In this document: positions 35,458-61,755 of the stretch, piece after piece
How positions within the stretch are numbered: position 1 is the first letter of the stretch
Layout: each line of letters opens with the position of its first letter
Assembly (NCBI RefSeq): GCF_038025025.1
Contig: NW_027117340.1
Span: 1,488,001-1,552,000, forward strand
Origin: Phyllosticta citribraziliensis
Taxonomy: Eukaryota
Direction: 5' to 3'
DNA length: 64,000 nucleotides
Program-made: the position numbers and the translations under genes
Notes under the pieces: generated by a model
What the model was told of the DNA's origin: nothing
The model's input: the letters and a program-made list of their open reading frames with translations, nothing else
The model's database searches: none

Positions 35458-36595
35458 TCAAGCAACAGCGACAGGATTTCCCGCCGTTGCGCCCACGGCC
35501 TTCTCAATGCCTTGTTTCTTCTGCGACTCCTTCCACTTCTCAGCCCTCCCGTAGCTCTCCCGATAGCTCCCGCCAACAGCTTCCTCGACCGTGATTGGCG
35601 GGTACTTGGCCTGTTCGTCTTCGGCCTTGCAGTTGGGCAGACAATCAATGACATAATCCGGGTTTCCCGAAAAGAAGACCGGAATGCTGTACCGCTCCTT
35701 GCCGGAGCGGTTGATGACGCGGTGCAAGTTGCTGATGTAGCGGTCGTTGCTCCAGCGCATCATCAGGTTGCCCAGGTTGACGACAAAGGCGCCCGGCACG
35801 GGCATGACGTCGAACCACTGTTGGACGTCTTTGTCCCAGACCTGGAGGCCGTCGACCTCGTCTTGCATCAGCACCGTCACGGCGCCAAAGTCCGTGTGCG
35901 CACCGATGCCGCGCCGCAGCTTCTCCTCGCCGTCGCCCTTCTCCGTCGGCGGGTAGTGCAGAAGGCGCATTGTGGCCACTGCCCCGTCGCTGAAGCGCCC
36001 GAAGTAACTCTCGTCAAGATCCAGCGTCAGCGCCAGCACTTTGAGAATGTCCTTGGCCAGCGACACCACGGCGTGGTAGTAGGACATGCACGTCGTCTTG
36101 AAATCCTCAACTTCTGCAAGCAGCTCCTCCGAAGGCCATGCGTTGGGGCCTGAGTTGAGCTTCTTGTTCACGTGGTAAGGGTGCGTCTTGGGGATCTCCT
36201 CGCCAATATAGAAGCCCTCTTTCAACTCGGGCAGCGTGCCCTCTTCGAGGATCTGAGAGCGGAGCAGCTCGTAGCCGCGGTTCCAGGTGTTGAGATCTAT
36301 CAACACATCAGCACCGCATGTTGCATTTTGCATGAAAACGTGATCTGGCAATACCTTTCCCCACGCTCTTCTTGACCTCCAATGGCAAATCGAAAAAGCG
36401 CTTGTTCCACTGCATGACCTTCTGCTGCAGCTCAACGGGCACGGGGTGGTTTATGATCTGGAAAAACCCATTATGCAAGCAGCAGTCGCGCACCTGGTCG
36501 ACTAGCTTCTTTTTGGCCGCCAGGTCCTCCGAGTAGAAGACTGAGAAGTCGAGCAGCGGCGGGCTGCGCGCGGTGTTGGGCTCAGAAGACGCCAT
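35458..36595 (-). CDS. hxnY: 2-oxoglutarate/Fe(II) dioxygenase (IPNS-like); HxnY orthologue by context
   Basis: ATG at 36595; intron 36354-36297. Motifs PLLDFS...NGFFQIINH, HTDFG (HxD), SNLHRV and ERYS (RxS). First gene of the hxn-like cluster. Confidence 0.8.
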
Positions 36596-37855
36596 GACGA
36601 TGACGGTGCGTATGAAGGTAATGTGCGTGCTACAGCAGTAGAAAGATGGTACAAGCCAACTGAATTCCGGTCAAATCCGCGTCAGGTAAAACAGCTCGAA
36701 GTTGTTGTCTCGTCCGTCCGTCGTCCTAGATCGTTTTTCGCCGGACTGTCGCCTTGATATCCAACAAACGGGAATGAATACCAGCACGCTCGCACTTATT
36801 TGACCACACTATTACCCAACGCGTGACTGATCGGTCTCCCATCATTGAACTGGCCAGATAGTCGGCCGCGCTCGCGCGTTCGCTGCTGTGTCAGCAAAAC
36901 GCAACCCACCTTCAACCTGACCCCTGCACACCCATCCATTGTTGTCCACCTCGAGATACGCGACACCCCTGCTCCTGCTGCTCCCCGCAACACAGGAACA
37001 CGGCGCGCTCAGCAGCAGAGGCGGCCAAGAGTGGGATGAACTCGAGCACCCTCCACCCACCCTTTCCCCGCCCCCATTCTTGATAGCCCTAAGCAGCCCG
37101 CATCCGAGCTTGGGATCCCGGCCACCCTCTCGATGCTTGGTCCCTGTTGAGCTAGCAAACTCGCTTACTTCTTAGGGCAGTTGCCGTAAGTGGCAGCTGT
37201 TTGCTCGCGATCTCATACGGTTTTCCTGAGACTTTCTGTTCAATTTTCGATCCTCACGTCTCGGTCATTGCGCGAGACGAGACGAGACGAGATGACGCAT
37301 GTGCCGCGATTGCCGTGCGACCTTGAATGTATCTACATGTACTGGTACCTCCAGGGGTACCGGCTTGGCGCCTCCTATGCCTCGCGAGGTATATTTGTGA
37401 CGAACCTGGGATTTGGTTGTCTTGAGCAATTCAAAGATACTCTTTTGACTTCTCTCTATTTGGCTCCCAAGGCCATATGCTCCTCGACTGGCAGCGGGCT
37501 ACCGAATGGGAGTCGGATCGGTGGGCTAGCCGATGACATCGTCGGCTAGGGAATGGACTGGAATTTTGCTTCGGAAGAAGGGTCCATTCGACGAGGTGCC
37601 TCCGGCAGGGAGAACAAGCTCTCCGCGGAAGAGGTCCTTGTGGCATTCAATGAAGATTTGCTAACACTCTGGTCCGTGAACTCAGGAAAGTGACAAATAG
37701 AGGGGTGCTTGATTGAAGAATCTTTTGATCGTCGCTATTGACTGATATTTTGGTGCCGTTTAATGTCCGAAGCCATGCTTCAAGAGAGAAAAGATCTAAA
37801 ACCCGACCCGTCCTCCATGCTACATGTAGTCTCCAAATAGCAAAGAATTGTCTAT

Positions 37856-39230
37856 CTATGCCGCAACAGTCTCCTCGTAGGTAGGATAGTCAACGTAGCC
37901 CTTCTCAGGAGGATCCGCGCCGTAGAAAGTCGACCTGTCATACTGATTCAACGGAAGCCCGTCGGCCAGTCTCTTTGGCAGATCCGGGTTCGCAATGAAC
38001 CAGCGCCCGAAGACAATCGCGTCGCCATAGCCCTCTTCGACCGGCACGGTGCAGTTTTCCCTGCTGAACCCGCCGGCCGTCAAGAATTTGACACCGCCGT
38101 TGGCCAGAATCTTGGAGAATGGCGCCAGCGAAGGCTTGTACGAAGCCTCCTTTCCGCGGGTGGCTTCCGCCTCGACGCCGTTGCCGTTTGCATTGTAGGC
38201 GGCCAGCGCGTCCATCTTAGCCTGGTGGTCGAGAACCTCGTCGAATCGCGGCTCGACCATGTGAACGTAGGTCAGTCGCTGCGGCAGCTGAATGATGCGT
38301 TGGCATAGATAAGCCCAGTGTGCGTTGGGATCACTGTCGCGTGTGTCCTGGAAGTAATTATAAGGGGACAGGCGGATGCCGACGCGTTCGGAGCCAACTG
38401 CTTCGCACAAGGCCGAGATTACTTCGAGGGGAAAGCGGCAGCGGTTCTCGATTGAGCCGCCGTACTCATCGGTGCGCAGGTTGACATTATCGTGGAGGAA
38501 TTGGTCCAGGAGATAGCCATTGGCGCCTGCGGTCGTGTCAGTTGAGTACGAACAGCCCTTGCAGATTGAAGCTGACCGTGGATTTCAACACCATCGAAGC
38601 CAGCCTCCTCGACTGCCAATTTGGCAGCAAGAGCGTATTTCTTGGTGATGTCGTGGATTTCCTCAACCGTCAACGGCCTCGGGGGCGTTGCCTCAAAGTC
38701 GCTGCCGTCTGCTGCCTTTCCCTTGATGGGAATATCAGAAGAGCTCACAGGCGGTTGGCCGGCGAGGAAAGTGGCGGGAGAGGCACGCCCGGTGTGCCAC
38801 AGCTGGCAGAAGATGTAGCCACCTTTGGCGTGCACAGCATCTGTAACTTGTTTCCATGCAGCCAATTGAGCTGGATCGTACACACCCGGTGCGCCGGGAT
38901 ATCCACAAGACTGGGGGTTGTCAGAGTTGATATTGAGGCGCAACCAATTCGACTCACGCGGTGGTAAATCTCAGTTGCCTCTGCGAGGAGAAGGCCGCCT
39001 TTTGACGCGCGCTGTGCGTAGTATTGCACGTGTAGGTCAGACGGGGCGTAGATTCCGTCGCTCACCTTGCGACCACGGAGACGCGTCAGAGGGGCCAGGA
39101 CAAGGCGGTGTTCAAGCTTAATCTTGCCAAGCTCGAGCGGCGTGAACAGGGCGGAATCTTTGAGAGGAGCAAATTTCGAAGCACCATTGGCGCTGCCGTT
39201 GGTTTTTGAAGAGCCGTTGGTGACTGTCAT
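37856..39230 (-). CDS. hxnT: Old Yellow Enzyme-family NADH:flavin oxidoreductase; HxnT orthologue
   Basis: ATG at 39230, two introns. Motifs [57 protein letters not shown] and STFY. Transcribed divergently from hxnS, as in A. nidulans. Confidence 0.85.
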
Positions 39231-39386
39231 GGTGGGCGATGGATGGGAACGACGCAAACAAGGTGGTGCAGGACGAAAAACAAGGGCGACGCGACGTTGA
39301 AAAATAAGGGCGGCGCCATTCCGACATTTGAAGACGGCCAATGGCAGGCTAACGTGAGCAGCTACACCAAACGCCCCTGGAACGGA

Positions 39387-39414
39387 GGATGGGATGGGAT
39401 GGGATGGGATGGAT
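39387..39414 (+). repeat. (GGGAT)4 pentanucleotide repeat; G-quadruplex-forming motif in the hxnT/hxnS bidirectional promoter
   Basis: ggat gggat gggat gggat gggat ggat gives four GGG tracts with 2-nt loops at 39391-39408. Confidence 0.75.
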
Positions 39415-39657
39415 AGAGTGGGCGAGGAGTGGGAGTCGGATAAGCGCGGTATCCGTAATGGCTCGGCCTTGAATGGCCGGCCGGTGCAACGCGGCTGTCG
39501 CACCGCACATTAGCTGCTGCGGCGTTCAGGGAGGAGTCGTACGCATTGCCACAAGGCCTGGCCTGGCGCCTTTTGTTGCTTCAAAAGAAGTTGGACACCT
39601 TATCGCGTTGCGAGGAAGCGCGTCGTGTTGTTGCAAACGAAGAGACCTGGACGGACC

Positions 39658-42600
39658 ATGTCTCCCTTACCAAAACCACCCCTTGCTGCGACGAGACCCG
39701 CTACCGACGTCTCCGCCGCTGAGGCTCTCACACCTCTCATCCAAACCACCTACACCTCTCCCACTCTCCGCTTCTTCCTCAACGGTAACAGAGTTGAGCT
39801 CGACAATCCCAACCCTCACTGGACTCTTCTCGACTTCATCCGCGACTTCCATGATCTCAAGGGCACAAAGCAAGGTTGCGCAGAGGGAGGCTGCGGTGCC
39901 TGCACCGTTGTCCTCAGCTCGCCAAAAATCTCCAAGAGAACGAAAAAGATAGAGTACCTCGCCGTCAACGCCTGTCTCTTCCCCCTGGTCGGTGTGGACG
40001 GCAAACACATCATCACCATCGAGGGCATCGGAAACGTCCTCAACCCACACCCTTTGCAAGAGCGCATCGCCAAACTCCACGGCTCGCAATGTGGCTTTTG
40101 CACTCCCGGAATCGTCATGTCTCTGTATGCCCTTGTGAGGAATGCGTACAATCCAGAGACCGGCGAGTTCCACCTAAGCGAGCATGAAATCGAGGACGAA
40201 GGCCACCTCGATGGAAACCTCTGCCGCTGTACCGGTTACAAACCCATCCTCCATGCGGCCAAGACGTTCGTCAGGGAGGACCTGAATGGCCGCTTGGCCC
40301 CGAGCACCATCTCTTACTCCAAGGATGATGCTTTCGATCTCACCGAGATTCCGCGGGGCGGCTGTGGATCGTCCTCTTCAGGGTCTTGCGGCAGACCCGG
40401 AGGATGTTGTAGAGACAAAAGTCCTTCGAGTAGTAGCAGTGGTGCTGAAAGCGAAACTGTGAAATCGTCGTCCTCGTCGTTGACTGAACCGGACTCGTCA
40501 TCTGCGACAGCCAGTCTTGGCGATGACCAAGAAGTGGACGCTGGTCTGACAGGCGCAGCCTACGCGAAACCAATGAAGTCCAAAGAGACAAAGGAGGAGG
40601 GAACAAAGCCAGAAAACACCAAAGCACAAACGACCCTAGACGCAGCCCCTGCTGCTACGAAACATGGGGTTCCACATTATATCTTCAAGCCTTACCAACC
40701 CAACACGGAGCTCATCTTTCCGCCGTCTCTTTGGAAGCATTCGAACGCACCCCTCTGTTTCGGCGATGATAGAAGGTTATGGTTCAGGCCAGTCACGCTG
40801 GAGCAACTTGTACAGCTGAAGAATGCGTATCCGTCCGCGAAGCTCGTGGGAGGTGCCAGTGAAGTGCAGGTCGAAGTCAGATTCAAAAACTCCAATTTCG
40901 CTGTGTCTGTCTACGTGTCAGACATTGAAGAACTCAAAGAGACCAAGTTACCCCAAACGGATGCCGAGTGGGATTCCCTAACTGAACTGTACTTGGGCGC
41001 GAACGCTCCTTTGTCTGAACTTGAACATGTGTGCAAAGTCGTACACAGCAAGCTCGGCCAAAGTGCCTTGGGTCTAAAAGCCTTGAGAAAGCAGCTTCGG
41101 TACTTTGCCGGCCGCCAAATTCGCAATGTTGCGTCTCTGGCTGGTAACGTTGCTACTGCCTCTCCTATTTCTGATGGCAACCCAGTTCTTCTAGCCGCCC
41201 GCGCGGACATCATCGTCCAAACACAAGAACAAGGCTCAGTCACTCTTCCCATTTCCAAATTCTTTGTCGGATACAGGACGACTACGCTGCCACCTGATGG
41301 AGTCATCACGCACATACGCATTCCCCTTCCTCCGGCAAACGCCAAAGAGATTACTAAAGCCTACAAGCAGGCCAAGAGAAAGGACGACGACATTGCAATC
41401 GTTACTGCTGGATTCCGCGTCCGCCTTGACGAAAGCGGCAATGTAGAAGACGTCTGCTTAGCCTATGGCGGAATGGCACCCACGACTGTGGAGGCCAAGA
41501 AGACGCAGGAGGCGTTGCTCGGGAAGAAGTGGTTTGAGTCAACGACCCTCGAAGCTGGACTAGATGCGTTGGTGACCGATTTCAATCTCAGTTACACTGT
41601 CCCAGGAGGCATGGCGCATTACAGACGAGCTTTGGCGCTTTCCTTCTTTTTCCGTTTCTGGCACGAAGTCGTCGCAGAACTTGGAATTGGCTCGGTCGAC
41701 AAGGACATCATCGAGGAGATCCACCGTGAGCTTTCCACCGGCGCCAGGGACGACTATAACCCGCTGGAGCAGCGAGTCGTTGGAAAACAGGTACCGCACC
41801 TGTCCGCTCTGAAACAGTGCACTGGAGAGGCAGAGTACCTGGATGATATCCCCCGTCAAGACAGAGAACTTTTCGGCTCGTTGGTACTCTCTGCGAAAGC
41901 CCACGCAAAGATTGCCGACATAGATTGGACGCCGGCCTTGTCCATGCCTGGTGTAGTCGGTTATATCGACAAAAAGAGCATATCGGCAGAGGCTAACATG
42001 TGGGGATCCAAATACAAAGATGAGCCATTCTTTGCTGACGGCGAAGTCCTGGCGCATGGCCAAGTTGTTGGCATGGTTTACGCAGATACGGCTTTGCATG
42101 CCTCTGCCGCGGCCAAAGCAGTCAAGATTGTCTACGATGATCTCCCAGTCATTTTGACCATCGACGAGGCAATCGAGGCCGGCAGTATGTACGAGCACGA
42201 CAACCAGCTCCGGAAAGGAGCTGCCGTCGCCGGCAAGATGGACGAGGCCTTTGCAAAGTGCGACCGCATCTTCACTGGCGTCACACGGGTTGGCGGCCAG
42301 GACCACTTTTACCTCGAAACCAATGCTGCTCTGGCGATTCCATCAAAAGAGGACGGATCGATGGAGGTCTGGTCGTCGACACAGAATACCATGGAAACTC
42401 AAGAATTTGTCAGCCAAGTACTTGGAGTCCCCAGCAACCGCATGAACGCACGCGTCAAGCGGATGGTAAGTACTCCCCCCTGCTCGGAGGCAGCACCAAG
42501 GAGCATTCGCGCGCGGCGCCCTCCCCCCCTCTTTTTCTTTCTTTTTCTTTCTTTTTAGAGGCACATTGGAGCTAATACGATCTATAGGGTGGGGCTTTCG

Positions 42601-44379
42601 GAGGCAAGGAGAGTCGAAGTGTGCCATTTGCTTGTTATTGTGCCATTGCCGCCAAAAAGGAGGGTCGGCCAATCCGTGTGATGCTCAACCGCGATGAAGA
42701 CATGGCAACTTCAGGGCAACGCCATCCAGTGCAGGCGCGCTGGAAAATCGGAACGACGCACGAAGGACGGCTACTCGTCATGGACGCAGACCTCTACGCC
42801 AACTCAGGCTTCTCGCAAGACCTGTCGGGCGGCGTCATGGACCGGTGCTGCACGCACCTGGACAACTGTTACAACGTGCCAGACGTGTGGATCCGCGGGC
42901 GCCTCTGCAAGACGAATATCCATAGCAACACGGCTTTCCGCGGCTTCGGCGGGCCGCAGGCAATGTTCATCGCCGAGCAGATGATGCATGCCGTGGCCGA
43001 GGGACTTGGCCTGGATGTCGATGAGCTGCGTTTGCGTAACCTGTACAACATTGGGGACCGCACGCCGTTCCACCAGCTCATTGACGACGACTGGCATGTG
43101 CCAACGATGCTGAAGCAGCTCAAGCAGTCGAGCGACTACGAGCAGCGCAAGGCCAACGTCGTGGCCTTCAACGCCTCCCACCGCTGGCGCAAGCGCGGCA
43201 TCTCTCTCGTGCCCTGCAAGTTTGGTCTTTCGTTTGCGACTGCGATCCATCTGAACCAGGCCGGCGCATCAGTCAAGGTGTACGCTGACGGTAGTGTGCT
43301 GCTACATCACGGGGGCACTGAGATGGGCCAGGGGCTCTACACCAAAATGTGCCAAATTGCCGCGCAAGAGCTTGGAGTCCCTCTCGACGCCGTCTACACG
43401 CAAGACTCGCAGAGCTACCAGACGGCCAATGCCAGCCCCACGGCTGCCAGCAGCGGCAGCGACCTCAACGGAATGGCCGTCAAGGACGCCTGCGACCAGC
43501 TCAAGCAGCGGCTCCAGCCGTATTGGGACAAGTTTGGACGCGACGCTGCATTCAAGACCATTGCACACGCGGCCTATCTCGATCGCGTCAACTTGGCGGC
43601 TAATGGCTTTTGGAAGATGCCTCGCATTGGATACATTTGGGGCACGTATGATGCGGAGAAGGCCAAGCCAATGTATTACTATTGGACGCAGGTACGTGTA
43701 GTTCACGAGGAGTCGAGAAGCTTGTATGCTGCTTGACTGCATTCGCTTCGGGCGAAGGAATGCTCCCTCGTCCCCTGCTTTTGCTCTTTCCCCTGACCCT
43801 GACCGCAACGCTAATACGCACTAGGGCGTGGCCTGCTCCGAAGTCGAGCTGGACCTCCTGACGGGCGCGCACACGGTACTGCGCAGCGACATTTTGATGG
43901 ATGTCGGCCAGTCGATTAATCCAGCCATTGACTACGGACAAATCGAGGGCGCCTTCATCCAGGGCATGGGCCTCTTCACGACCGAGCAGTCGCTCTGGAC
44001 AACGCGCGACGGCGCCCTCGCCACCGCGGGCCCAGGCACCTACAAGATCCCGGGCTTTGCAGACATTCCGCAAGTTTTCAACGCGGGCATGCTGCGCGTT
44101 GACGAGAACGGCGAAGCACTCACGTGGAACAACTTGCGCAGCGTACAGAGCAGCAAGGGTATTGGCGAACCGCCACTGTTCTTGGGCGCAACCGTCTTCT
44201 TTGCGCTGAGAGAGGCCGTGAGGGCTGCGCGGATAGAGAGAGGCGTCACTGAGCCGCTCGTGCTGCATGGACCGGCGACGGCAGAGCGATTGCGTTTGGC
44301 AGTCGGCGATGACATTGTCAAACGGTCCGCAGTGGAGAGGAAAGATGGCGAAAGGGCATTTTTTGTGGAGGTGGCGTAG
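39658..44379 (+). CDS. hxnS: Xanthine dehydrogenase paralogue: nicotinate hydroxylase / purine hydroxylase II (Mo-cofactor, FAD, 2x[2Fe-2S])
   Basis: ATG at 39658; introns 42466-42587 and 43692-43824. Motifs GCAEGGCGAC, QCGFCTPG, NLCRCTGY, GGAFGGKESR, TAFRGFGGPQ, GTEMGQG and KGIGEPP. Carries FATAIHLNQA, the HxnS-type motif, rather than the HxA-type FTALFLNQA. Confidence 0.9.
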
Positions 44380-46084
44380 TTTGACCAACGTGTAAGTTTT
44401 CATTCGTGGCGAGCGTGGGCATTGGCTGTGTTGTGGTTTGCCATTTTGACAAGGAAAGGCGTGGGTGCTCCTAGACTGATCGGCACCGGGTTACGCTGTG
44501 AAGAATGCAACTCTTGTTTTTCAGCCTGCTGCATGGCTGCATGGGACACCTCGCTTGTCGGCCGTGACGGATTCGGCAGACGACGGCGATAGGTCTCGAG
44601 ACGCGGTTGGTGATGGGGACAAACAGACTCGCGCCTCAAAGTCGATATCACAGCCGTCTCATCACACAACGGTCGCTTATCGAGAGGAGTCACAGCGATG
44701 TGGGCTCGCTGCGGTGCTGGGACAAAGAGTTGAGTTTATCGACGGGGGGCGTGGGCCGCTCCGTGGCCGTCGTGTCCCGCGGATCATCCATCTGATATGG
44801 GTCCGTCCGTGTTCGTTTTGCGAGGGACTTGGGCCATCCGGTCGATGATTGACGGGCGACGGGCTATCAGATTCTGGATCCAGCAAACAATGGTCCATCC
44901 AGGTCCTTGTGCAGTAGTGTGTACCTAGCTGTCGGAGATGAGCTTGTTCGCGGTCCGTGTCGGGTCGATTGCTGCGCCGTAGCGATGAATGGCGATTGTG
45001 TTGATTACGAATGGCCACAGGGCGTTGGATCGATGTTTAGGTTCAGTCCGCAACGCCATCTGCATGGCCGTGTTGGTGGTCATGACTGGCGGGTGGTGCA
45101 TGAGGTGTTTGCGACGGGAGAAGGCGACGCTGGGAGAGGTCGAGCAGTAGGACGTGTTGTTGCATGAATGCTCCGTCGTCGAGGTGAGATGGATGGCGGC
45201 AGAGGGTGGGCCCATGACGCTTTTTCCAGTACGTACAAGATACGGAGGTCGGGGATCGGGGTGATTGGTCGACAGGCGACGCCCAAAGCGGCAGCTCCGC
45301 CAGGCCACTGCGACCCCGCCCCAGCCGACAGCCTTCGGATATCAAACCCAACCCAACCCTCCACCTCGTCCTAACCTTCTCGGCGAATTTGGCCAAATGC
45401 CGTGCCACCAACGCGCTAAAGACGCCGTTATCCATCCTATCGCCGCCTGTCATCTCGCATCCACCTGCTGCCCGCCAGAGCAATCGGAGTCGTCCGTCGC
45501 CTGACCGCCCGCGCCCTCGACCCTCTCCAACTTGCTTTTCTGAATCCAGCAGCTTATTCCCGTCTCGCGCTTCCCTCGACCCGTTCCCGGCCAAGCACGA
45601 GGTGAGGTGGTGGACGTGGACTTCGTCACCCAGCAGCAGCTCTTCATGTATGCCTGTCGTCTCCACTCTTGATTGAGCCCGTGGCAGAGCGACAGGCCGC
45701 GCAGCCCACGCCCAAGACCAGCACGGCCGTCGGATCGTCGACGCCGAAGCCGAAACGCGCTCGTCGGCCGCGCGCCATGGCCAGATGCGAACACCACGGC
45801 CATCCCTGTGCCATGAATGGCGACATGCCGCTCTTCCAAGAGGGGTTGCGGAGAACAGGTGCAACCGTGCGTGCCTGACCTGGGGCCCTGCGGCTCCCTC
45901 TGGACAGGGTCTACCAGCACAATTTATGGCCGACGTCGCATCACCCCGATAAGACCAGTCAACCCCAAGTATCCACTGCTGTCCTGCTGCGCTGCTCTTG
46001 AACCTACATCGCCTCTCCTCTGTGAACTGTCTCTCCAAGCCATTGAATCGCTCGTCTGCCGACATCGCCCTCCCCCACCTCGTC

Positions 46085-49000: not shown

Positions 49001-50078
49001 GGCCGCGGACTACGCCAATCCGTCGACCAGTAGGAATGCAGGAGCCATAAATTCTGGCAAGACGGCCAACATGAGCAGTAACGCTGCAAAAGCTGCCTGG
49101 CACTCTGCGGCCCTCATCCGAGATGGGGCGACGCGTCTGCGCGATTGGGACACTGGTGGCTTGTTCCACTACCCTTGGTGCTTGTATCTTGCCTGTCTAT
49201 GCATCTGGGCTTACTGGCATGCAAAGCCGCGGGACGAGATACAACCGACTTCGTCTTCCAATAGACGCGACTCGCTCCACGCATCTGCCAGCGGGGCGTG
49301 GGAAAAAGACACTACGACAAGACGTTTGCGCCAGCGCTCTCCCTCTCAATGCCAGCCAGTCGACCCGGACACCGAGTCCCTCGATGGGCACGGCCAAGAT
49401 TCAGACGAGGAGCCAGACGACGACGACATTGATGACGATGCGCCCATCTGGAACCCGGCGTCGGAAATGCACGCTTTGCTGAGAGCCATGATTGCTCGGC
49501 CGCCTCCTCCCTCGTGTCCATCCAGGCCAACTGCCAGCAACACCAACAACAGTACCAACACGACTGCACCGGCGACCTCTTCTTCGGCTTCGCAGACCCA
49601 GGAGCTCCCACTGTCGCTTCCGCGCATCAAAAACATCAAGCGCAAAACCGCCGGCTTGACGGCCGTCGTCGCTCACGCTCTGAGCCGCGTCCGCTGGGCC
49701 GTCGTCCACGACGGCATGATGGTGCTGCGCGGCTTGGTGCCTGGTCGCGTCGTCGGTGGGTTGGGCGGCAGCGGGTTGGGAATGGGGCTGGGAGCGTCGC
49801 CTGCAGCTGCTGCTGTCACCGCGACGGGCGGCGGTGCTGCGATGAGTGGAGGATTCAGTGGTGGTGGTGGTTCTGGTCATTCTGCCGCTGGTGGCGAAGC
49901 CGCTGTCTCTGCTGCGGCCATGGGCTTGGCTGGATTGGGCGCTGGCCACGCTGGCGGGAACGGTGGTGCTGTGTTTGGTGCCGATGCTGCGGATGCTGGA
50001 GGGGTTTTGGGACTCGGTGTCAGTGTCGGAATGGATATGGATATGGGTCTGGGCGGTATGGATATTGGCGGTGTTTGA
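46085..50078 (+). CDS. hxnR: C2H2 zinc-finger plus fungal-specific transcription-factor domain; HxnR-like pathway regulator
   Basis: Two C2H2 fingers, CGYSGC...HLLNH and CERC...ERHMQRH. Introns 46314-46569, 47086-47136, 47910-47954, 48236-48290 and 48611-48660. Motifs NPDTASSFNMPFTTMSNYNWLFD, YFTRFNTAYPLIHQPTF, FGKSRAGQKQHDMAHLFHGLLINLIRRSDC and VRWAVVHD. Confidence 0.85.
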
Positions 50079-50618: not shown

Positions 50619-50919
50619 CTCATTTATTTTGACACCCACTTGAAGCTCATGAAAACTTACTTCCTATCCAAGAGGGTCTCTGCATTGTATGTGCTTGCCA
50701 AGTCTAGTCGACGAGGCTTTTTTAGAAGAAGCTACCTATTGGCTCCCTTGCCATGCCCATGCCCATGCCCATCCATGCCTGTTTGTTTCCTTTTTGGTCC
50801 CGTAACCCCTTCAGCTACTTCTATCCAACCAGCAAAGTTTTGAGTCCGTCCGTCCGTCTTGTCGTGTTGTACCCCATCATCCATAGTTCATCCTGCAGAG
50901 TGCCAGAGTACTGCTCGCA

Positions 50920-52495: not shown

Positions 52496-52652
52496 GCTGA
52501 GGCAGGCCGTGTGCCTTAGCTGGCGCTTTTGCGAGATGGGAGTGGACCAGTTGACGACTCGAGATGAAGAGAAGAGGTCGAGGTAGAGGAAAGATGGGCG
52601 ACGGATTTCAAAATGAGGCCGCAACCGCCACGGCGATTCTGCGGTTGTCTCA

Positions 52653-52995
52653 TGGTATCCGCAGCCTCGGTGACGACACCATGATTTGGTGGTTTTCCAT
52701 GAGGCGGGAGCAGTCGGGTTGCCGCACCTTTGAGCATCCAGGGCCTCGGCGACGACATCATACTTTGGTATTTCCCATGGGCGGACGGAGACGCCATATC
52801 GCATCGCATCGCATCGCATCGTTGAGCGTCTGCAGCCTCGGCGACGACATTATATTTTGGCGTTTTCCCAAGAAGAGGCGGATTGGAGCACTGCACCGTG
52901 GAGCATCCGCAGCCTTAATATCAACATTACATTTCTGTGTTCTCCCATGAGGTAGAAGGAGTCTCCGCAACATTGAGCATCACACGTAATAACAT
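52653..52995. repeat. Degenerate tandem array of ~77-bp units (4 full copies and 1 partial)
   Basis: Approximate core GAGCATCCGCAGCCTCGGCGACGACAT...TTTGG...TTTCCCATGAGG at ~52653, 52732, 52824 and 52901, partial at 52975. The second unit is expanded by (GCATC)4. Confidence 0.75.
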
Positions 52996-55144
52996 TCTTC
53001 TTGTCCTCGGTCATTGAAATCATTTTGATATGGCTGTGAAAGATGAGCTTAAGCCTTAAAAATGGCCCCTCTTTGGCAGGTTTCGAGGTTTGATATTCTT
53101 TCCAACCCTTCTTATTAGGCCACATGCTGAGAGCGCGTTTACCCTACCTGCCGGTGCACAGCAGTTGGCAGACTATCAACAACCGGGTGGGGTGCCTTCG
53201 GAATCAGTAGTCGTCTTATTGTCGGCAAGTGTGGGTATGGAGAAGTGAGTTCGCGCGCTGCGTGAACTGCTGTTATAGGTCCAGAGGTCTAACAGCTATT
53301 AGAGCTGACTGACAGTTAAAAATAGCTGCGTAAGTATGTAGGCTTCTGGAACCCACCTTCTACTAATAAGCGTCGACATCTGTCGGCGTTGCTGAGTAGT
53401 TAGTAAAAACAGGGGGTAAATAGACACATGCAAAGATGACTGGCGCCGATAGCAGCCCGCTGACTGTTGTCGGCCGACAAGGTAAACGCGCTCTAACATG
53501 AATGCGAAAAGGGAGTCACACTGGCCTGAAATCCAGCACTTTCCGCAGCAAGTACACGGGAGCATCGCATCTTATGAACTCACGTTGTTCACTTTCCGAG
53601 ATTGGCAAGTGCTTACCCCTGCTCAAAGTTGGTCATGTCGACTGAGACGCAATATGGGGACCCGGGTCAACATTGAAGAACGGACACCGACTTTTGTCTT
53701 GCGGAGACGCTTGCACCCTTGCGCGGCTTTACCCGAGGTCATGGAACCGAGCGCATGGTGGACATGGGAAAAGTGCGTAATGTGGATCGTACGTACGCAT
53801 GCCTCGCCGGAACCCAGGGCAAGATTGGAGTGCTAGAAAATCACCGTGTTCGGCGAATCTCGAGGGCAACTGTGGTCGTACAAGCGAAGTCCTGCCATTA
53901 CCGCGGTGCACCATTTAAAGTGGGCGAGCACGAAGCCATCTCCAACAAAAGCCACGCGCTGAGGATCTTCGCCTCGCTTGGAAAGCGGAGGGCTACACGG
54001 GGAACGACCTGCAAATGGCGATCCAACGGAAAATGCAGGGTTCAAAGTGTGGAGGAGTGCTTGGACCAGACGAGCATGAAGAAAGAAAAGAGACTGGTCA
54101 GCCATGGGGCTCGGGCTCGCCGACGACGGGGCTTTTGGGACTTTTTCCCACCGTTTCGACACTGTTTGGCAGTTCTTTTTCAAGCCCGGAACCCGAATCC
54201 CTCGAAGCTGTACAGCACAAGTCAGTCCAAATGCCGCCGAGTCAGGAATCGAGGGTTGCAGAGCGAGACGCAGAATGGTAGCGAGCCGTTCAGTAAGGCT
54301 GAAACACGACGCTGGAGAAACCGGCCTGCTATTTGGCCGGATGCGCCGGCTTGTCGAGGAGGCGGCGAAATTAGTTGCCTTGATCTTGTGAGGCAGCCAC
54401 AGTAAAGATGAGAGGGTTGCGATCTTCGTTGGAGTAGAGTCAGACCTGTGGTGTTGCATGACCTTGAGAAGACGACCTCAACACTGCCTCCATGGCCCGC
54501 CTGAAGACAGCAGCAGCTCAACGCAGAAAAGTCCGAGGAAAAGAAGAAGTTCAAGCATCCAAGACGGCGACATGTCGGATCCTCTGGCGACGCTTTGGGC
54601 GGCACGCGGTGCTACCCGTCCGACGGCTCCCGTAAAGGGCATGTTGACGTACACTGGAGCTGAACGTTGCGAGTGATGTGCACCATCCGACACCGACTCA
54701 ACTCGACCAAAAAAAGACTCCATGGCAAGCGCTAGCCTAGCCGACGGCGCGCTTGGGTGTGGTCGAGGAGCGCTCGGCTGCAGCACTACCAGAGCATCAG
54801 ATCAGTCGTCGTTGTAGCGTGCGTGGGAGACTAGCATCCGGAAGTGGGGGAGCCAACGGCCGCCACACCACCCACCCCTGGGCGCCTCCCGTGAGCCTCT
54901 GCTCTGCCTCAAACTCCTCCCCAATGACGGGACCTCTCTCTGCTGCTTGCGACCAAAAAAATTCTGGATCGCAATCAGGCCACCCGCGACGGCATCCTTG
55001 AACCACTGTGTGTGCCCCCCCTGCTGCCTCCAACTCCCCCCATCGCGACTCCTCGGTCTTGAAAAACGCCAGTCCGATCATAATGGCCACTCCCACCACC
55101 ACTCTTCCCACTCTTCCACCACTGTCTACGTCCTTTTTATTGCA

Positions 55145-57381
55145 ATGGCTCCGCATATCTGGGGGCTGATCAAGCGCAGCACTCCTCCAAGGTTCCTCAA
55201 AATGTCCCCCAGCAGAATTCCGAATGGCGAACTCAGAGAAGGCAGCGTCGACATCTTGCAAGCCGATATTCCCTACGTTCCTGGTTCATCCCATGGCCCT
55301 ACACACTCGAAAAGCGAAGTCCTCGTCGTAGGCGCCGGTCCGGCCGGCCTCATGCTTGCGTACGCCTCCCTGGTCCAAACTCACGTGAAATTTGTCCGAC
55401 TAATTCTACCTCCAGAGACAACCTTGCCCGCTTTGGAATCAAGGTGGAAATCATCGATGACCGGCCAGAGCGGACCCTCACGGGAAGAGCGGATGGCCTT
55501 CAGCCGAAGTCCATCGAAACGCTGCGCCAGATGAGGATTGCGGAGCCCCTTCTCCGCAAAGGTGTCAAAGTCTTTGACATATGCTTTTGGGTAGGCGCTA
55601 GCCGAGATTCCTTGGTTTCCGAACACTGACAACCGCCAGAGATCATCATTGACGGAAAAGATGCACAGAGCGGGGAGAGAGGTGCACTATCCGCAAGAAA
55701 CAGTAGATTTGCTAGATCCCTACATCCTGCTCGTGCACCAGGGCATGATTGAGCAGCTCTTCATCAACGATCTCCGGGAAAGGGGAGTAGACGTGCAAAG
55801 AAACACGGCCTTTATGGACTTTGAGTATCTTTCGGGCAAGACGTCACCCATTCAAGTCACGTGCAAGGCCGACGTGCAGCAGCAAAAGAGGACGATGAAT
55901 ACGCACTACATTGTGGGGTGCGACGGGGCGCACTCACAGGTCCGCAAGTCGATGCCCGGCGCGCAGCCGCTTGGAGCGTCCTCGGACGCCATCTGGGGAG
56001 TCTTGGACGGGCAGATAGAGACGGACTTTCCGGATCTCTGGTCCAAGGCCGTCATCTACTCGGAGGAGGCGGGGTCGGTCCTCATCATCCCGCGTGAGCG
56101 CAACCTGACGCGGCTGTATATTGAGCTCAAGTCCGAGTCGAGAGGGAGCGCGTCCAAGGACGAGCTCACGCGAGAGGTTGTCATGCAGAGGGCTCAGGAG
56201 ATTATGCATCCATTTTTCCTCCGATGGAAGTCGGTCGGTGAGTCGGTTTGGGGAAGAGGAGACGAAGAAATTTACTAACGGGAGGATTGCAGAATGGTAC
56301 GGCAGGTATCAAGTGGGCCAGCGCGTGGCGACCAAATTTGTCGACGACAGGGGCCGAGTGTTTATCGCTGGAGATGTAGGATTCGCCGTCGTTTATGCTT
56401 GCCAGGGGACAAAGCTCACCAATTGCACAGGCCAGCCATACGCACTCGCCAAAGGCCGCTCAGGGCATGAACACGTCGCTTCACGACGCCTGGAACCTGG
56501 CCTGGAAGCTCAACCTCGTCATCCGCAAAATCGCAAAGCCCGAGCTGCTGCACTCGTACGAAGAAGAACGCCGCAAGATTGCCCAGGACCTCATTTCGTT
56601 CGACTATGAGCACGCCAACGCCTTTGCCGCGGGCGACTCGACGGCGCTGGCGCAGAATTTCATGAAGAATGTGCGCTTCATCAGCGGCATAGGGGCCGAG
56701 TATGGCCAAAACGACCTCAACATTGCAACAGACGCCATGGGCTGCGGCGACCTGCGACCCGGCTGCCTGCCCTCGCCGGCCAAGGTGACGCGCTTCATTG
56801 ACGCAAATCCAGTTGACATCCAGCTCGACATTCCGACATTGGGCCAATTCCGCATCTACTTTTTTGCAAACGACGCGCTGCGCAGCCGACCCTTTCTCGA
56901 AAAGGCGTGTTCGGCCGCCAACAGCAGCGCCAGCTTCATGGGCCGCGTGTCGGCCGCCGCCAACGCCAGCTACACGCTGCAACCGCCCGTCGCGGCGCCG
57001 CACGACGAATTCGTGTGTCCGGAGCGCTACACGCCCATCTCGTGCCTATTCACGTTTGCGCTCGTCACGCGCATGGCCAAGAGCCGCCTCGAAATCGCCG
57101 ACCTGCCCCAAGTGCTGCGAGACTCGCCGTGGACCATTTATCTCGACAACGTCGCAAACATGGACACGCGCAGCCTGTCGTGCACCGACAAGTGGCTAGG
57201 CGCAAACACGCTCGACGCCGACCAGGTGGCCATTGCCGTCGTGCGTCCCGATGGCTACGTCGGCACCATCAAGGTTTGGGATGACGGCACCACGAGGGAG
57301 AAGGGTGCCGAGGCCATGCGCTTCTTGGATGACTACTTTGAGCGGTTCCTGACGTGCGATTTGCCCGGCCAGGCATACTAA
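55145..57381 (+). CDS. hxnV: FAD-dependent phenol 2-monooxygenase-like enzyme; HxnV orthologue
   Basis: ATG at 55145 (or 55202), four introns. Motifs [68 protein letters not shown] and a C-terminal thioredoxin-like domain with VVRPDGYVG. Confidence 0.85.
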
Positions 57382-58618
57382 TTACATGGATTTAGATCAA
57401 GAGGGGGACATGCATAAAGAGAGAGCATGAATCTTTTTTGGCAGAAAGAAGGCGAGGGCGTTGATGGATTTGACTACCTATCTAGCAAACAGGCAGGCGC
57501 ATGATAATGACTCAAGATTTGTTTCTTCCATCAGAAGTGGGGATGGGCTGGCAGATGGTCGAATTGCATGGTTGGCCATTCTCACAACAGACCCGAGTGG
57601 AATAGGGAGAGAAACATGTGGAAAACTTGTTTGATGGTCTGACGGGTCTACTCCAGAAATTCAATTCATGACTTCACTCCCATAATCTCGCCGCGATTCT
57701 TACGTCTGACCACTCATCTTCCACCTAGAGCAGTCCACAACCCCCGAGAGCCTTACATCCTCTTCCGTGCCTGTCTCAGCAATGAGCCAATCACCATCCC
57801 TTTTGCATATGCGGGGTCCAACACAGCGCTATGCCAAAAGGGGGTGGGAGCTATGGCCACCAACCCTTGACCTTATCCACACTCGCCCACTTTCTTCTCC
57901 CCCACTCTAGACCGCCTCGCCCCATGAAGAAGTCTGACCATGTCGCCGCAATGCTGTGTGATGCCGGGGAAAAGTGGCCATGGGCGATGCGAGCAGATAC
58001 GAGGCCAACATCGCACGGCGGGGCGGGAGCGCGGCGTCGAGAACCCGAAAGAAGACGTGGGCGCGAGGAGAGAAAAACTGTGTTGGATTAGAAATTGCTC
58101 GGGCACAAGCGAAGGGGGCGTGCAAAGCGGGCAGCTGGGCATATATGTCGCGGGATAGATTTTCCTTGGGTAGATATATAGACCTGAGGTGTATAGTTTG
58201 GCAGTAGGTGCGGAGGAAGATGGGCGCATGGACGGCACGGCGTCTGGCGCGCAGTTTGCGTGACTAAGGCGCGTGTGTGAATGGTGAGTTGAGTGCGGAG
58301 GGAAAGCAAGCAAGCAGCAGAGATCGGGTTGGGAGATACGACGCGGGAAGAGAGGGAGGCGGTGTTTGATTGTCATGGAGCTTAGTTGCCTTCTCCACAA
58401 TCAGCCGGTGCGCGACGAGCTGGTGCATGGTGGGGTTCTTCTTTTCTTCCCTTTTACATATTCTAGCAACCTGCCTACCTGCCTTGGACCTCACTGCTCA
58501 ACTCTCTGCTCGTCTGCTTGTGTTTGCGAGGAAACGATTGACTCGACTCCGTCTTTCACGACTGCTACGAGGCTTATTCATTCGTCTCCACACAAACTTT
58601 TGCAATTGAACCTGAACA

Positions 58619-59664
58619 ATGGGCAAGAAGCGCGTTTTGGTCAGCTACGGCGTCGACATTGACGCCGTCGCCGGATGGCTGGGATCATATGGCGGCGAGG
58701 ACTCGACCAGCGACATTAGTCGAGGTAAGCAGCTCTCCGCTTTGGCATGGAATGCGCGCTCATGACGCTCCCCAGGCATGTTTGCCGGCACAATCGGCGT
58801 CCAGCGACTGCTCAAGCTCTTCGACAAGTACAAGATCAAGGCGACGTGGTTCATTCCGGGGCACAGTCTGGAGACGTTCCCGGAGGACTGCGCGGCCATC
58901 CGCGACGCCGGGCACGAGATTGGGCTGCATGGCTACAGCCACGAGAACCCCAAGGACATGACGCTGGAGCAGCAGCGCGACGTGTTGGACAAGACGTACC
59001 GGATGCTGACCGAATTCGCGGGCAAGCCGCCGCGCGGCAGCGTGGCGCCGTGGTGGGAGGTTTCGCGCGAAGGCGCCAACCTGCTGCTCAGCTACGGCAT
59101 CGAGTACGACCACTCGATGAGCCACTCGGACTACCAGTGCTACTGGCTGCGCACCGACGACCAGTGGACAAAGATTGACTACTCGAAGCGCGCAAAGGAC
59201 TGGATGAAGCCCCTCGTCCAGGGAAAGCCCACGGGCATTGTCGAAATCCCTGGGTCGTGGTATATCGACGACCTGCCGCCGATGATGTTTATCAAGGACG
59301 CCCCCAACAGCCACGGCTGGGTCAGCCCCAAGGTCGTCGAGGAGCTGTGGAAGGACCACTTTGACTACTTCTACCGCGAGTACGACGAATTCGTCTTTCC
59401 CATGACCATTCACCCGGACGTCAGCGGAAGGCCACACGTGCTGTTGATGCATGAGAGGTATGTTGTTCTCGGCGCAAGCGTGCCCGCATGCGAGCTGACT
59501 TTGTGAATAGAATCATCGAGCACATCAACAAGCACGAGGGCGTCGAGTGGGTGACAATGGAGCAAATGTGTGATGACTTCAAGGCGCGGAATCTGGTGCC
59601 AGAGGGCGCTCTGATGCCGGCTCCTGCGGGCGAGATGTTGAAGAAGCCGCCGGTGGGAGTTTGA
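58619..59664 (+). CDS. hxnM: Polysaccharide-deacetylase (CE4)-fold C-N hydrolase; HxnM cyclic imide hydrolase orthologue
   Basis: [36 protein letters not shown]; introns 58725-58775 and 59458-59510. Motifs [32 protein letters not shown] and [10 protein letters not shown]. No signal peptide. Confidence 0.85.
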
Positions 59665-60162
59665 TGGCGTGGTGGGCAATGAGCTGGCAGAAATTGGGAA
59701 ATGGCAGACAACATGACATGACGGCCCGATTTCATTGCGTCCGATGGATGTGTTTACTCCCTCAGAGTGACTGGTACACAAATAAAAAGAATGATTGTTA
59801 GGTGCAGAGTCGGCACGCGTCCGGCAACCACTTCTCCTCCCACCTTCAACCCTGGTCACCCCACTTCTCTGTTCGTCCCGGCGAGTCCGTCGACGTCTCA
59901 ATCGAAGCCACCACTTCCTAGCTCCAAGCTAGCAACCCTACCTATCAACTCTTGTGCCGTAGACGTCGGAACGCGGTGCTACGTTGCCATGTCCTCTCCC
60001 ATATCAAGTCCGCGCTCCATCGCGGTCATGCTTCAAATACCATCTGCCCAGGACACTTGAGCCTCGCATTTCGCCTTTTTCTTTTGCTCATCTGGGAAGA
60101 CTGGTCTCCTTGTCTGCTTGTTCGAGATCCGTTCGTAAATTGTTTGCACAAGCACCGTCGTC

Positions 60163-61755
60163 ATGTCTTTACCGCAAGCCCGCGCACCTCCAGTCCTCGA
60201 GCAACAGCATCGCGCCCCGGATGAACGACTCGACGTATTTCGCTCTGCCCATCCCCTGCCCTTAGACTGATAACTGACTTTCCCCAGATCATCATCATCG
60301 GCGCGGGCCTCGGCGGCCTCTGCGCCGCCACCGCATTGCTCCTCTCCGGCCACAAAGTGACGATCCTCGAGTCGGCAGCGGCGCTCTCAGACGTCGGCGC
60401 CGGCATCCAGTGCCTGCCCAACTCGGTGCGCATCCTCAGGGCGCTGGGCCTGGAGCCGCACCTGGCACCGCACCTGACGACGCCGCGCTGCTGCAACATG
60501 CTGTCGTGGAAGGGCGAGGTGCTGGCCAGCCTGCCGTTCAAGGCGTACGCGGACCGCATCGGCGGCGGCAGCGAGTTTTGGGACTTCCACCGCGCCGAGC
60601 TGCACGCCGCCCTCGTCGCGCGCGTCCTAGAGCTGGGCGGCGCTGTAAGGACCGGCTGCCGCGTCAAGGACGTCGTGTGCTTTGACGGCGACCTGGGCGA
60701 AGGCGGACTGGGACCGGACCAGAGCGCTGCGGAAGCGGTGCTGGAGAGCGGCGAGCGGGCGCGCGCAGACATCGTCGTTGGCGCTGACGGCATCAACTCG
60801 CGGTGTCGAGAGATAATGCTAGGCCGGCCGGACCCCCCGGTCTTGACGGGCGATCTAGCCTACAGGCTGCTGCTGAAGACGGAGAAGATGCTCGAGGACG
60901 ACGAGCTGAGAGACTTGGTGCTTGATCCGCAAGTCAACTACTGGCTGGGTCCAGACATGCACGCAGGTGTGTTTTCTCCTTTCCGTCCCATCCAAACACC
61001 CACCCCTGACGAGCAAATCAGTGAACTACATCCTCCGCGGCGGCGAGTGGTTCAACATGGTTCTCTTGGTTCCGGACGACCTGCCTCCCAACGTGTCCAT
61101 CTCGCCCGGCTCGATACCAGAGATGCAAGCCCCGTTCCGCGACTGGGATCCGCGCATCCCAAAGCTGCTGGCCCTCTGCGAATCGGTGCACAAATGGCGG
61201 CTGTGCATCCGGCCAACGCTGGAGCCGTCGTGGTCGCACGCGTCGGCCGCCTTCACGCTGCTGGGAGACGCCGTGCACGCGACGCTGCCGTACCTGGCCA
61301 GCGGCGCGGGCATGAGCTTCGAAGACGCCTGCGTGCTGGGCCTCTGCCTGGGCCGCCTGTCCAGCAGCACCAAGTCCGGCAAGGCGCGCGCGCTCCGCGT
61401 CTACGAGGCCTGCCGCAAGCAGCGCACCGAGGCCGTCGTCGCGCGCGGCAACAAGCAGCAGTTCCTGTACCACGTGCACGACGGCCCGCAGCGCGACGAG
61501 CGAGACGCGCTGTTTCGCGCGTGGAACGGCGTCGAGGCGCGGCGGGCGCGCGGCGAGCGCGTCGACCCCGCGGCCGAGGGCTTGGAGCAGGGCAGCGACC
61601 CGTTCCCCTGGCGCCAGGGCGGCGTGGGCGATTGGCTGTTGACGTACGATTGTTGGGATGACGTGGAGAGCGAGTGGGCGAGGGATGTCGAGGGGGAGAA
61701 GAGGAAGATGACGGAGATGGAGCAGGAACAGGAAGGTGATAGGGCGAAGCTGTAG
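60163..61755 (+). CDS. hxnX: FAD-dependent salicylate-hydroxylase-like monooxygenase; HxnX (6-hydroxynicotinate monooxygenase) orthologue with PTS1
   Basis: ATG at 60163; introns 60235-60287 and 60967-61021. Motifs IIIIGAGLGGL, VGAGIQ, DIVVGADGINS, TGDLAYR and LLGDAVHATLPYLASGAGMSFED. C-terminus is -AKL. Confidence 0.85.

Follow-up and report, generated by a model that had tools for sequence, protein, structure and literature searches.

Which pathway is encoded by a run of neighbouring oxidoreductase, hydrolase and regulator genes in the fungus Phyllosticta citribraziliensis, and how much of that pathway does the locus hold? To answer this question, we analysed a 64,000-nt stretch of contig NW_027117340.1 (positions 1,488,001 to 1,552,000 of the forward strand; the whole stretch is called the window, and coordinates are counted from its first base), in which a sequence-only reading had placed a nicotinate degradation cluster resembling the hxn regulon of Aspergillus nidulans. 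Open reading frames (ORFs) taken from stop to stop and searched with Pfam give, between 35458 and 61755, the order hxnY(−), hxnT(−), hxnS(+), hxnR(+), a spacer with a DUF7730-family ORF(−), hxnV(+), hxnM(+) and hxnX(+), where 35458 is the final base of the hxnY stop codon and 61755 that of the hxnX stop codon. All seven enzyme and regulator classes were recovered at the places and in the order first proposed. Seven of the eleven known hxn genes stand side by side in ~26 kb, and the locus is very probably the orthologue of the A. nidulans hxn (nicotinate catabolism) regulon in a Phyllosticta-like Botryosphaeriales fungus. As had also been proposed, members of three A. nidulans clusters are joined in one locus: hxnY, hxnT, hxnS and hxnR of cluster 1/VI, hxnV and hxnX of 2/VI, and hxnM of 3/I. 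The locus does not hold a complete pathway set: hxnW, hxnN, hxnP and hxnZ are not in the window.

The gene hxnS (39658-44379, +) encodes a nicotinate hydroxylase-type molybdenum hydroxylase of 1488 amino acids (aa) in three exons (39658-42465, 42588-43691 and 43825-44379). ORFs at 39514-43733(+) match the Pfam domains Fer2, Fer2_2, FAD_binding_5, CO_deh_flav_C, Ald_Xan_dh_C and MoCoBD_1/2, and both introns are spliced out, with 0 mismatches, in contigs of RNA run X1. Five signatures that distinguish HxnS from HxA are given by Amon 2017 (PMC5746545): FTAL gains an Ala, bovine Phe1013 is replaced by His and His954 by Pro, Val1081-Ser1082 becomes Ser-Gly, and the Phe417 position is taken by an aliphatic residue. 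All five are found in the window protein. Specifically, in an alignment to bovine xanthine dehydrogenase (XDH), exon 2 reads FATAIH, which combines the one-residue Ala insertion with His at Phe1013, and Pro and Ser-Gly are found at His954 and Val1081-Ser1082, respectively; alignment to rat XDH places Ile at the Phe417 position, with rat and bovine numbering uncertain by one residue. The canonical HxA features, FTAL without insertion followed by Phe and His at bovine 954, are absent from the protein. Among its best 120 database homologues, 114 have FATAx[H/Y] and the other 6 give no pattern match, and HxA-type metagenome loci (L014-L020, L040 and L055, from the set described below) show F-TAI[F/W].

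Exon 1 of hxnS is 93% identical to its counterpart in P. citriasiana, 86% to that in P. capitalensis and 72-76% to those in other Botryosphaeriales, followed by many Pleosporales-named proteins. Phyllosticta belongs to the Botryosphaeriales in the Dothideomycetes, and the remaining genera are assigned here to Botryosphaeriales, Pleosporales or other Dothideomycetes by their customary placement. Public records of hxnS homologues bear generic aldehyde oxidase or xanthine dehydrogenase names, as had been anticipated for automated annotation; the HxnS orthologue of the closest relative is called 'molybdopterin binding aldehyde oxidase/xanthine dehydrogenase'. Exon 3 of hxnS has 31 listed differences between the window and the related fungus of the RNA libraries described below, and 26 of them affect third codon positions, as expected for a gene under constraint.

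The gene hxnT (37856-39230, −) is divergent from hxnS, with start codons at 39230(−) and 39658(+) and 427 bp between them. It encodes an Old Yellow Enzyme (OYE) ene-reductase of ~425 aa in three exons, modelled by eye and with an approximate second intron boundary; Pfam Oxidored_FMN is found on three minus-strand ORFs at 37859-39509, covering profile positions 2-271. The nearest solved structures are OPR1 (1.4e-49) and OYE1 (1oya, 2.4e-41), N-ethylmaleimide reductase of the OYE family is also among the relatives, and sequence comparison places HxnT with the classical OYEs. Further to the left, hxnY (35458-36595, −) encodes a 2-oxoglutarate/Fe(II) dioxygenase of ~359 aa, with inferred exons 36595-36355 and 36296-35458 separated by an intron set by eye. 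It matches Pfam 2OG-FeII_Oxy at 35461-36450(−) (E 5.5e-25) and, in part, DIOX_N, and it has homologues with 55-65% identity in four hxnS-linked loci (L036, L044, L051 and L052).

To the right of the spacer, hxnV (55202-57381, +) encodes a phenol-hydroxylase-like flavin adenine dinucleotide (FAD) monooxygenase of the 2,5-dihydroxypyridine hydroxylase type, with 654 aa, four coding introns defined by RNA contigs, and the Pfam domains FAD_binding_3 and Phe_hydrox_dim at 55084-57378(+). Aligned to 3-hydroxybenzoate hydroxylase (MHBH, 2dkh), HxnV conserves Lys247, Leu258, Ile260 and Tyr271, with Asp75 and His135 outside the alignment; the same MHBH residues are reported for A. nidulans HxnV (PMC9304392). 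Read from alignments, the Lys and Leu of HxnV are replaced by Arg and Met in phenol hydroxylase 1pn0. The next gene, hxnM (58619-59664, +; 313 aa, two introns from RNA contigs), encodes a CE4-fold protein of the cyclic imide hydrolase type, matching Pfam Polysacc_deac_1 at 58766-59503(+). HxnM matches HpPgdA (3qbu) with E 1.2e-97 over 232 residues, and this is the structure stated to be closest to HxnM. Homologues in hxnS-linked loci have 46-62% identity for hxnV and 64-79% for hxnM.

The last gene, hxnX (60163-61755, +; 494 aa, two introns from RNA contigs), encodes a decarboxylating FAD monooxygenase of the 6-hydroxynicotinate 3-monooxygenase type, with Pfam FAD_binding_3 at 60225-61752(+). 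A His-x3-Tyr pair (HAVNY) spans the second intron, read from the ORF and not from an alignment to NicC His211/Tyr215. The protein ends in Ala-Lys-Leu (AKL), which we take to be a variant of the type 1 peroxisomal targeting signal (PTS1). A PTS1 is reported as conserved in HxnX (PMC9304392). The PDB neighbours of HxnX are 8gsm, 8x38, 8r2t and NicC 5eow/8uiq, with bacterial NicC in fourth or fifth place (1e-21 to 2e-22); with exon 2 as the query, the best solved structures are 8gsm (4-hydroxybenzoate, 2.1e-40) and 8x38 (vanillate, 5e-30).

Because the nearest structures are not NicC, we searched a 50%-identity representative library with exon 2 and built a FastTree tree of 132 rows and 206 columns, comprising 124 of 150 representatives, seven non-duplicate hxnS-linked homologues and the window protein. 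HxnX falls in a set of 17 rows with an SH-like support of 98, which holds all seven hxnS-linked homologues. The structure 8gsm itself is not in the tree, but its match to representative P0138, outside this clade (355 bits), is better than that to P0128, inside it (297 bits). In this tree, HxnX groups with the hxn-linked and not with the 8gsm-like sequences.

The regulator gene hxnR (46085-50078, +) encodes two C2H2 fingers and a Fungal_trans domain in ~1150 aa and has at least six introns, with approximate boundaries at 47955-48660. The first finger lies at 46184-46252 (Pfam E 1.1e-6), the second is split by a 256-nt intron, and Fungal_trans (PF04082) is found at 47097-48572(+); RNA contigs give the joints 46312/46569, 47084/47136, 47248/47302 and 47909/47955. 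The two N-terminal C2H2 fingers and PF04082 are the features that mark HxnR, and hxnR homologues adjoin HxnS-type genes in many metagenome loci. The last exon (48615-50078) encodes a long Gly/Ala/Ser-rich low-complexity tail, which accounts for the length of the protein. One intron, at 47249-47301 (+; 53 nt, GC..AG), has its joint in contigs of all four RNA runs, the related species included. Its removal shifts the frame to a stop 11 codons on, giving a protein of ~296 aa with zinc fingers only, whereas its retention leaves the long ORF of the full-length factor open; the 53-nt intron could serve regulated unproductive splicing or make a short isoform.

The cluster is transcribed. Contigs of run X1 match the window with 0 mismatches over pieces of up to 1920 nt and lack all 15 of the 15 listed GT/GC..AG introns in hxnS, hxnR, hxnV, hxnM and hxnX, so this RNA comes from the same or a nearly identical strain. 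With the introns defined by RNA contigs, the ORFs of hxnS, hxnV, hxnM and hxnX are complete. In addition, three RNA libraries labelled plant metagenome contain spliced contigs of the same five genes that are 90-95% alike and belong to a related fungus. For hxnY, hxnT and the central part of hxnR, the models from an automatic splice search were wrong or ambiguous, and the boundaries there were set by eye or left as ranges.

The same neighbours recur in other fungi. An alignment of 16 HxnS homologues led to 68 metagenome loci (numbered with the prefix L), 55 of which cover the diagnostic motif, 46 being of HxnS type and 9 of HxA type. Among loci of at least 14 kb, a homologue of hxnT, hxnR, hxnV, hxnM, hxnX or hxnY was found by tblastn (E<=1e-8) in 18 of 18 HxnS-type loci versus 0 of 7 HxA-type loci, and the grouping of hxn genes exceeds chance. 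The divergent hxnT-hxnS pair is present in 23 fetched loci, 17 of them non-redundant. Two long examples have the gene orders X M N V T S R (His_Phos_2) Y (L036) and X MFS R T S V N M W (L012), MFS standing for a major facilitator superfamily transporter. The interpretation given in the sequence-only reading is supported, and the assignment to generic paralogues, which would have counted against it, is not what we find: the HxnS signatures, the hxnX clade and the recurrent neighbours of HxnS-type genes all point to hxn genes.

A conserved element, CAAGAGTGG(G/A), is shared by hxn promoters across distantly related fungi, and was seen in the window and in nine metagenome loci (L002, L011, L012, L036, L044, L045, L046, L051 and L064). 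AGAGTGG is present in 16 of 18 non-redundant hxnT-hxnS spacers and CAAGAGTG in 13 of 18, compared with maxima in 100 shuffles of 8 for any 7-mer and 5 for any 8-mer; in these spacers AGAGTGG is single, central and mostly in the hxnS orientation. Across 12 loci (268 kb), 14 copies of the 9-mer CAAGAGTGG were counted, where 2.0 are expected (maximum of 6 in 300 shuffles). With few exceptions the copies are located between hxn genes or upstream of them, in T-S spacers and upstream of R, of V and of the Y-P, V-N and X-Y pairs. In the window, the DNA upstream of hxn genes, 7.5 kb in total, contains 6 of the 14 element matches (binomial P 0.003). Exact 9-mers stand upstream of hxnY (37026-37034, +; 431 bp before the start codon) and of hxnR (45663-45671, −; ~420 bp before the start codon). 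The bidirectional hxnT-hxnS promoter (39231-39657) holds a (GGATG)5 run and a copy of the element at 39415-39422 (AGAGTGGG), the leader of hxnV holds two adjacent copies (55099-55114, starting at 55099 and 55108), and the 7-mer core AGAGTGG lies upstream of hxnM (57902-57908, −; context TAGAGTGGGGG), 711 bp before its start codon. Among the window matches there is no copy in the DNA upstream of hxnX. The (GGATG)5 run is a perfect microsatellite at 39387-39412 that directly adjoins the element in this promoter.

According to Bokor 2021 (PMC8478523), an HxnR site GHGGGG is predicted by the zinc-finger code and none has been determined experimentally. The shared element includes GTGGGG, which is compatible with this prediction, and lengthens the core by five 5′ bases, making CAAGAGTGG(G/A) a candidate HxnR site by sequence.

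What does the locus lack? Pfam scans of 158 ORFs in the window gave no match to short-chain dehydrogenase (adh_short), Amidase or MFS. Searching the window for hxnW by tblastn with cluster-linked exons gave a best E of 0.017, a 70-sequence HxnW-like profile run over six frames gave a best E of 3.3, and tblastn with cluster-linked hxnN and MFS exons (from L036, L012 and L051) had no match with an E below 0.003. A possible hxnW relic at 53369-53449, touched by two queries (E 0.70 and 0.017), was discarded as noise when the 70-sequence profile failed to recover the site. With hxnW and hxnN not in the window, the divergent couples M-W and V-N, widely conserved according to Bokor 2021 (PMC8478523), are absent there, and hxnV, hxnM and hxnX are co-directional.

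The database gives a similar picture. No Phyllosticta, Botryosphaeriales or Pleosporales name is among the best 120 HxnW-like proteins (62-100% identity), although several other Dothideomycetes are present; the names are those of Leotiomycetes, Eurotiomycetes, Sordariomycetes, Pezizomycetes and some Dothideomycetes. Phyllosticta names are also missing from the best 120 HxnN-like proteins, where Pleosporales are numerous and Saccharata and Lasiodiplodia occur. Both HxnS-like and HxnN-like proteins are plentiful in Pleosporales and Botryosphaeriales, and together these lists suggest that loss of hxnW is lineage-wide in the two orders. Two Phyllosticta proteomes are in the database behind the lists, which consist of the best 120 matches and depend on a word filter, and which are therefore a lead and not proof. 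Among the proteins encountered, P0406 of Periconia digitata (901 aa) combines an Amidase with a Polysacc_deac_1 domain, more probably because annotation has merged neighbouring hxnN and hxnM genes than through a true fusion.

If the enzymes act as their A. nidulans counterparts do, the seven genes would serve a route from nicotinate to an open-chain product. The summary of the A. nidulans pathway that accompanied the sequence-only reading agrees with Bokor 2022 (PMC9304392). By this homology, HxnS would hydroxylate nicotinate to 6-hydroxynicotinate, HxnX, presumably peroxisomal by its AKL end, would convert the latter to 2,5-dihydroxypyridine by decarboxylation and hydroxylation, and HxnV would produce 2,3,6-trihydroxypyridine. 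The ene-reductase HxnT would then saturate the ring, HxnM would open the cyclic imide to alpha-hydroxyglutaramate, and an amidase encoded elsewhere would release ammonium. HxnY has no assigned step even in A. nidulans. The two-finger C2H2 activator HxnR would drive the genes by binding the shared CAAGAGTGG(G/A) element, with a nicotinate derivative as the likely inducer.

Several observations weigh against orthology with the hxn regulon. The assignment is indirect, being based on published signatures and linkage. The enzyme HxnW, needed by A. nidulans, and HxnN and the MFS transporters have no gene in the window. The closest structures of HxnX are 4-hydroxybenzoate and vanillate decarboxylating hydroxylases (~42% identity, by eye), ahead of NicC, and the tree that places HxnX with hxn-linked sequences is built on 206 columns, after 26 of the 150 representatives (<175 residues) and two duplicate loci were dropped. 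The seven HxA-type loci without hxn neighbours are near-duplicates and make a weak control, as they look like one organism sampled repeatedly, with an effective n of 1-2. The copy of the element in the window's own hxnT-hxnS spacer (AGAGTGGGCG) deviates from both published consensus forms. Furthermore, the RNA contigs, compared for hxnS, hxnR, hxnV, hxnM and hxnX, carry neither growth condition nor level, their depths cannot rank genes, and the hxnR contigs of all four runs carry the ORF-truncating 53-nt splice.

Some of these points would suit a set of genes in decay, in which, lacking hxnW, hxnN and the transporters, the fungus could no longer use nicotinate nitrogen and the remaining genes would detoxify pyridines or serve nothing. 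The window lacks four of the eleven regulon genes, Phyllosticta names are missing from both lists of 120 despite the two proteomes, the dominant hxnR contig form is frame-shifted, and Bokor 2021 (PMC8478523) reports many partial hxn gene sets. However, the ORFs are intact, spliced transcripts exist for hxnS, hxnR, hxnV, hxnM and hxnX, hxnS differs from its relative mainly at third codon positions, and the promoter element is kept upstream of hxnY, hxnT/hxnS, hxnR, hxnV and hxnM. In A. nidulans, other proteins partly stand in for HxnN and the transporters (PMC9304392), and the Phyllosticta genome may carry hxnW at another place or the fungus may bypass its step; we consider decay unlikely. Considerably less probable still is that the enzymes resemble the hxn set by class only and serve a 4-hydroxybenzoate, vanillate or phenol route together with purine hydroxylation. 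The best solved relatives of HxnX and HxnV, decarboxylating hydroxylases of 4-hydroxybenzoate and vanillate and phenol hydroxylases, respectively, would allow this, as would the acceptance of hypoxanthine by A. nidulans HxnS (PMC5746545), but HxnS has the HxnS-specific and not the HxA residues, HxnX lies inside the hxnS-linked clade and apart from the representative closest to 8gsm, HxnV has Lys and Leu in place of the Arg and Met of 1pn0, and around HxnS-type genes the seven families are found again together with an HxnR-type regulator. Orthology with the nicotinate regulon of A. nidulans is thus the explanation we favour.

Could this regulon work without HxnW? In A. nidulans, over-reduction yields 5,6-dihydroxypiperidine-2-one, which HxnW oxidises back and which acts as the physiological inducer. 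We tentatively propose, as a possibility with distinctly less than an even chance, that Phyllosticta, and perhaps Botryosphaeriales and Pleosporales as a whole, use a shortened nicotinate pathway without HxnW. In such a pathway, HxnT would reduce the single C=C of the diketo tautomer of 2,3,6-trihydroxypyridine (C5H5NO3) to 3-hydroxypiperidine-2,6-dione (C5H7NO3), the substrate of HxnM, skipping 5,6-dihydroxypiperidine-2-one (C5H9NO3). By atom count, one two-electron reduction yields the HxnM substrate, while the A. nidulans route adds two more hydrogens before HxnW leads back, and an HxnW-free route therefore appears chemically plausible. As the short cut would skip the A. nidulans inducer, HxnR would have to sense another metabolite in these fungi. 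The proposal draws on the absence of hxnW from both the window and L036, on the HxnW-like list without Phyllosticta, Botryosphaeriales or Pleosporales names among its best 120, and on the N-ethylmaleimide reductase of the OYE family among the relatives of HxnT.

Compared with the eleven-gene regulon of A. nidulans (1/VI, 2/VI and 3/I), the window has the same seven families with the published diagnostic residues, the divergent hxnS-hxnT pair, a regulator with two C2H2 fingers and Fungal_trans, a PTS1-type end of HxnX, and G-rich promoter sites compatible with the predicted HxnR core. It differs in having one locus versus three, a different gene order, a DUF7730-family ORF between hxnR and hxnV, no hxnW, hxnN, hxnP or hxnZ, and none of the promoter pairs X-W, P-Y and V-N; HxnS has 1488 aa versus 1396 in A. 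nidulans, and HxnT ~425 aa versus 388. Single-locus hxn clusters are already described as common outside Aspergillus in Bokor 2021 (PMC8478523), and the Phyllosticta locus therefore adds a case of a known arrangement and no new arrangement principle. Like the eleven-gene clusters of Cyphellophora europaea and Hymenoscyphus repandus in that paper, it joins members of the three clusters, and like other Pezizomycotina single-locus clusters there, it keeps the S-T couple and has an unrelated 'additional gene' inserted. Unlike those of C. europaea and H. repandus, it has seven genes and not eleven. Its hxnV, hxnM and hxnX are co-directional, and the widely conserved M-W and V-N couples are missing. 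What differs from the known clusters is that hxnW, hxnN, hxnP and hxnZ, two of them genes of pathway enzymes, are not in the window. The main text of Bokor 2021 (PMC8478523) makes no mention of Phyllosticta, Botryosphaeria, Macrophomina, Neofusicoccum, Guignardia or Pleosporales, and its figure S5B may draw Dothideomycete clusters; a literature search pairing Phyllosticta with nicotinate returned unrelated papers only.

Among the metagenome loci, L036 resembles the window: it has the same seven genes (X M N V T S R Y in 24.5 kb), lacks hxnW, shares the order and orientation of the T-S-R core, and carries an unrelated insert (His_Phos_2). Unlike the window, L036 keeps hxnN divergent from hxnV and has X-M-V on the other side of T-S. 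Its amidase is closest to Pleosporales-named proteins in the best 120 HxnN-like matches. The His_Phos_2 gene of this Pleosporales-like locus lies between hxnR and hxnY (L036:19081-20858) and is another 'additional gene'. The nic cluster of Pseudomonas putida (NicAB, NicC, NicX and others) also starts with C6 hydroxylation by a molybdenum enzyme, followed by NicC-like decarboxylative hydroxylation. However, the fungal ring would be reduced and opened hydrolytically by a CE4 imidase, as opposed to the oxidative cleavage of 2,5-dihydroxypyridine in P. putida, and the fungal hydroxylase is a paralogue of eukaryotic XDH; the authors of the fungal work regard the two systems as convergent. The fungal hydroxylases 8gsm (4-hydroxybenzoate) and 8x38 (vanillate), the closest solved relatives of HxnX, share its reaction type, but HxnX groups with hxnS-linked sequences and not with the representative nearest 8gsm.

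The spacer between hxnR and hxnV contains two minus-strand ORFs. The first (50920-51912, −), of the fungal DUF7730/2EXR family, has 330 aa from stop to stop and no start codon in frame; its Pfam match to DUF7730 (E 1.4e-4) is below the gathering score, the ESM Atlas assigns it to DUF7730 clusters with 0.96, and an upstream exon is possible. The second (51896-52849, −), 317 aa from stop to stop, is of uncertain coding status, having no Pfam match and no usable ESM Atlas match; its assignment as a CS/p23-type domain was dropped, as neither source gave support. An intron may join the two ORFs (50920-52849, −) into a single gene. Bokor 2021 (PMC8478523) describes unrelated 'additional genes' within hxn clusters. 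RNA hardly covers 50.6-52.6 kb in run X1 (depth of 1.5-10) and does not cover it in X5-X7, and 52.6-54.6 kb has no cover in X5-X7, such gaps being uninformative.

A transcribed leader precedes hxnV (53088-55201, +). An X1 contig runs from 53088 to 55007 and is joined to 55180 across a 172-nt intron (55008-55179), so that the hxnV transcript contig starts at 53088 at the latest, ~2.1 kb before the start codon. No ORF with a Pfam family was found in the leader, which may be a long 5′ untranslated region, a non-coding RNA upstream of the gene or the product of two overlapping transcripts. A single spliced contig of 4663 nt in run X5 (record 8, from the related fungus) extends over hxnV, hxnM and hxnX (window 56431-61644), and one X1 contig covers hxnV and the start of hxnM. 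These multi-gene contigs could reflect read-through or overlapping transcripts of co-directional genes, a contig being no proof of a single transcript.

The window as a whole has a G+C content of 52-63% in 2-kb steps. Outside the cluster, Pfam identifies housekeeping genes to the left (1-33 kb), encoding DUF2417, a cation-efflux protein, myosin I, a protein kinase, OPA3, Sin3 and a MutL-type protein. The immediate flanks (33.6-35.45 kb and 61.8-64 kb) have no Pfam match among ORFs of at least 70 aa, and the flanking genes nuo-17.8 and rax2 named earlier find no Pfam support in them. Between hxnS and hxnR, a 381-aa ORF (45043-46188, −) without a Pfam family was put down to chance, the DNA being rich in G+C.

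The known picture of the pathway is unchanged by the Phyllosticta locus. Because public annotation gives only generic enzyme names, the locus corrects the annotation of these genes, and because the element is conserved at hxn promoters, the regulon becomes directly testable; the element is the first cross-species support for an HxnR site that has so far only been predicted. The reduced gene set raises the question of whether fungi can dispense with the HxnW step and thereby with the compound that induces the A. nidulans regulon. The fungal nicotinate pathway has been worked out in one species only, and the locus shows it transcribed in a plant-associated lineage of Dothideomycetes.

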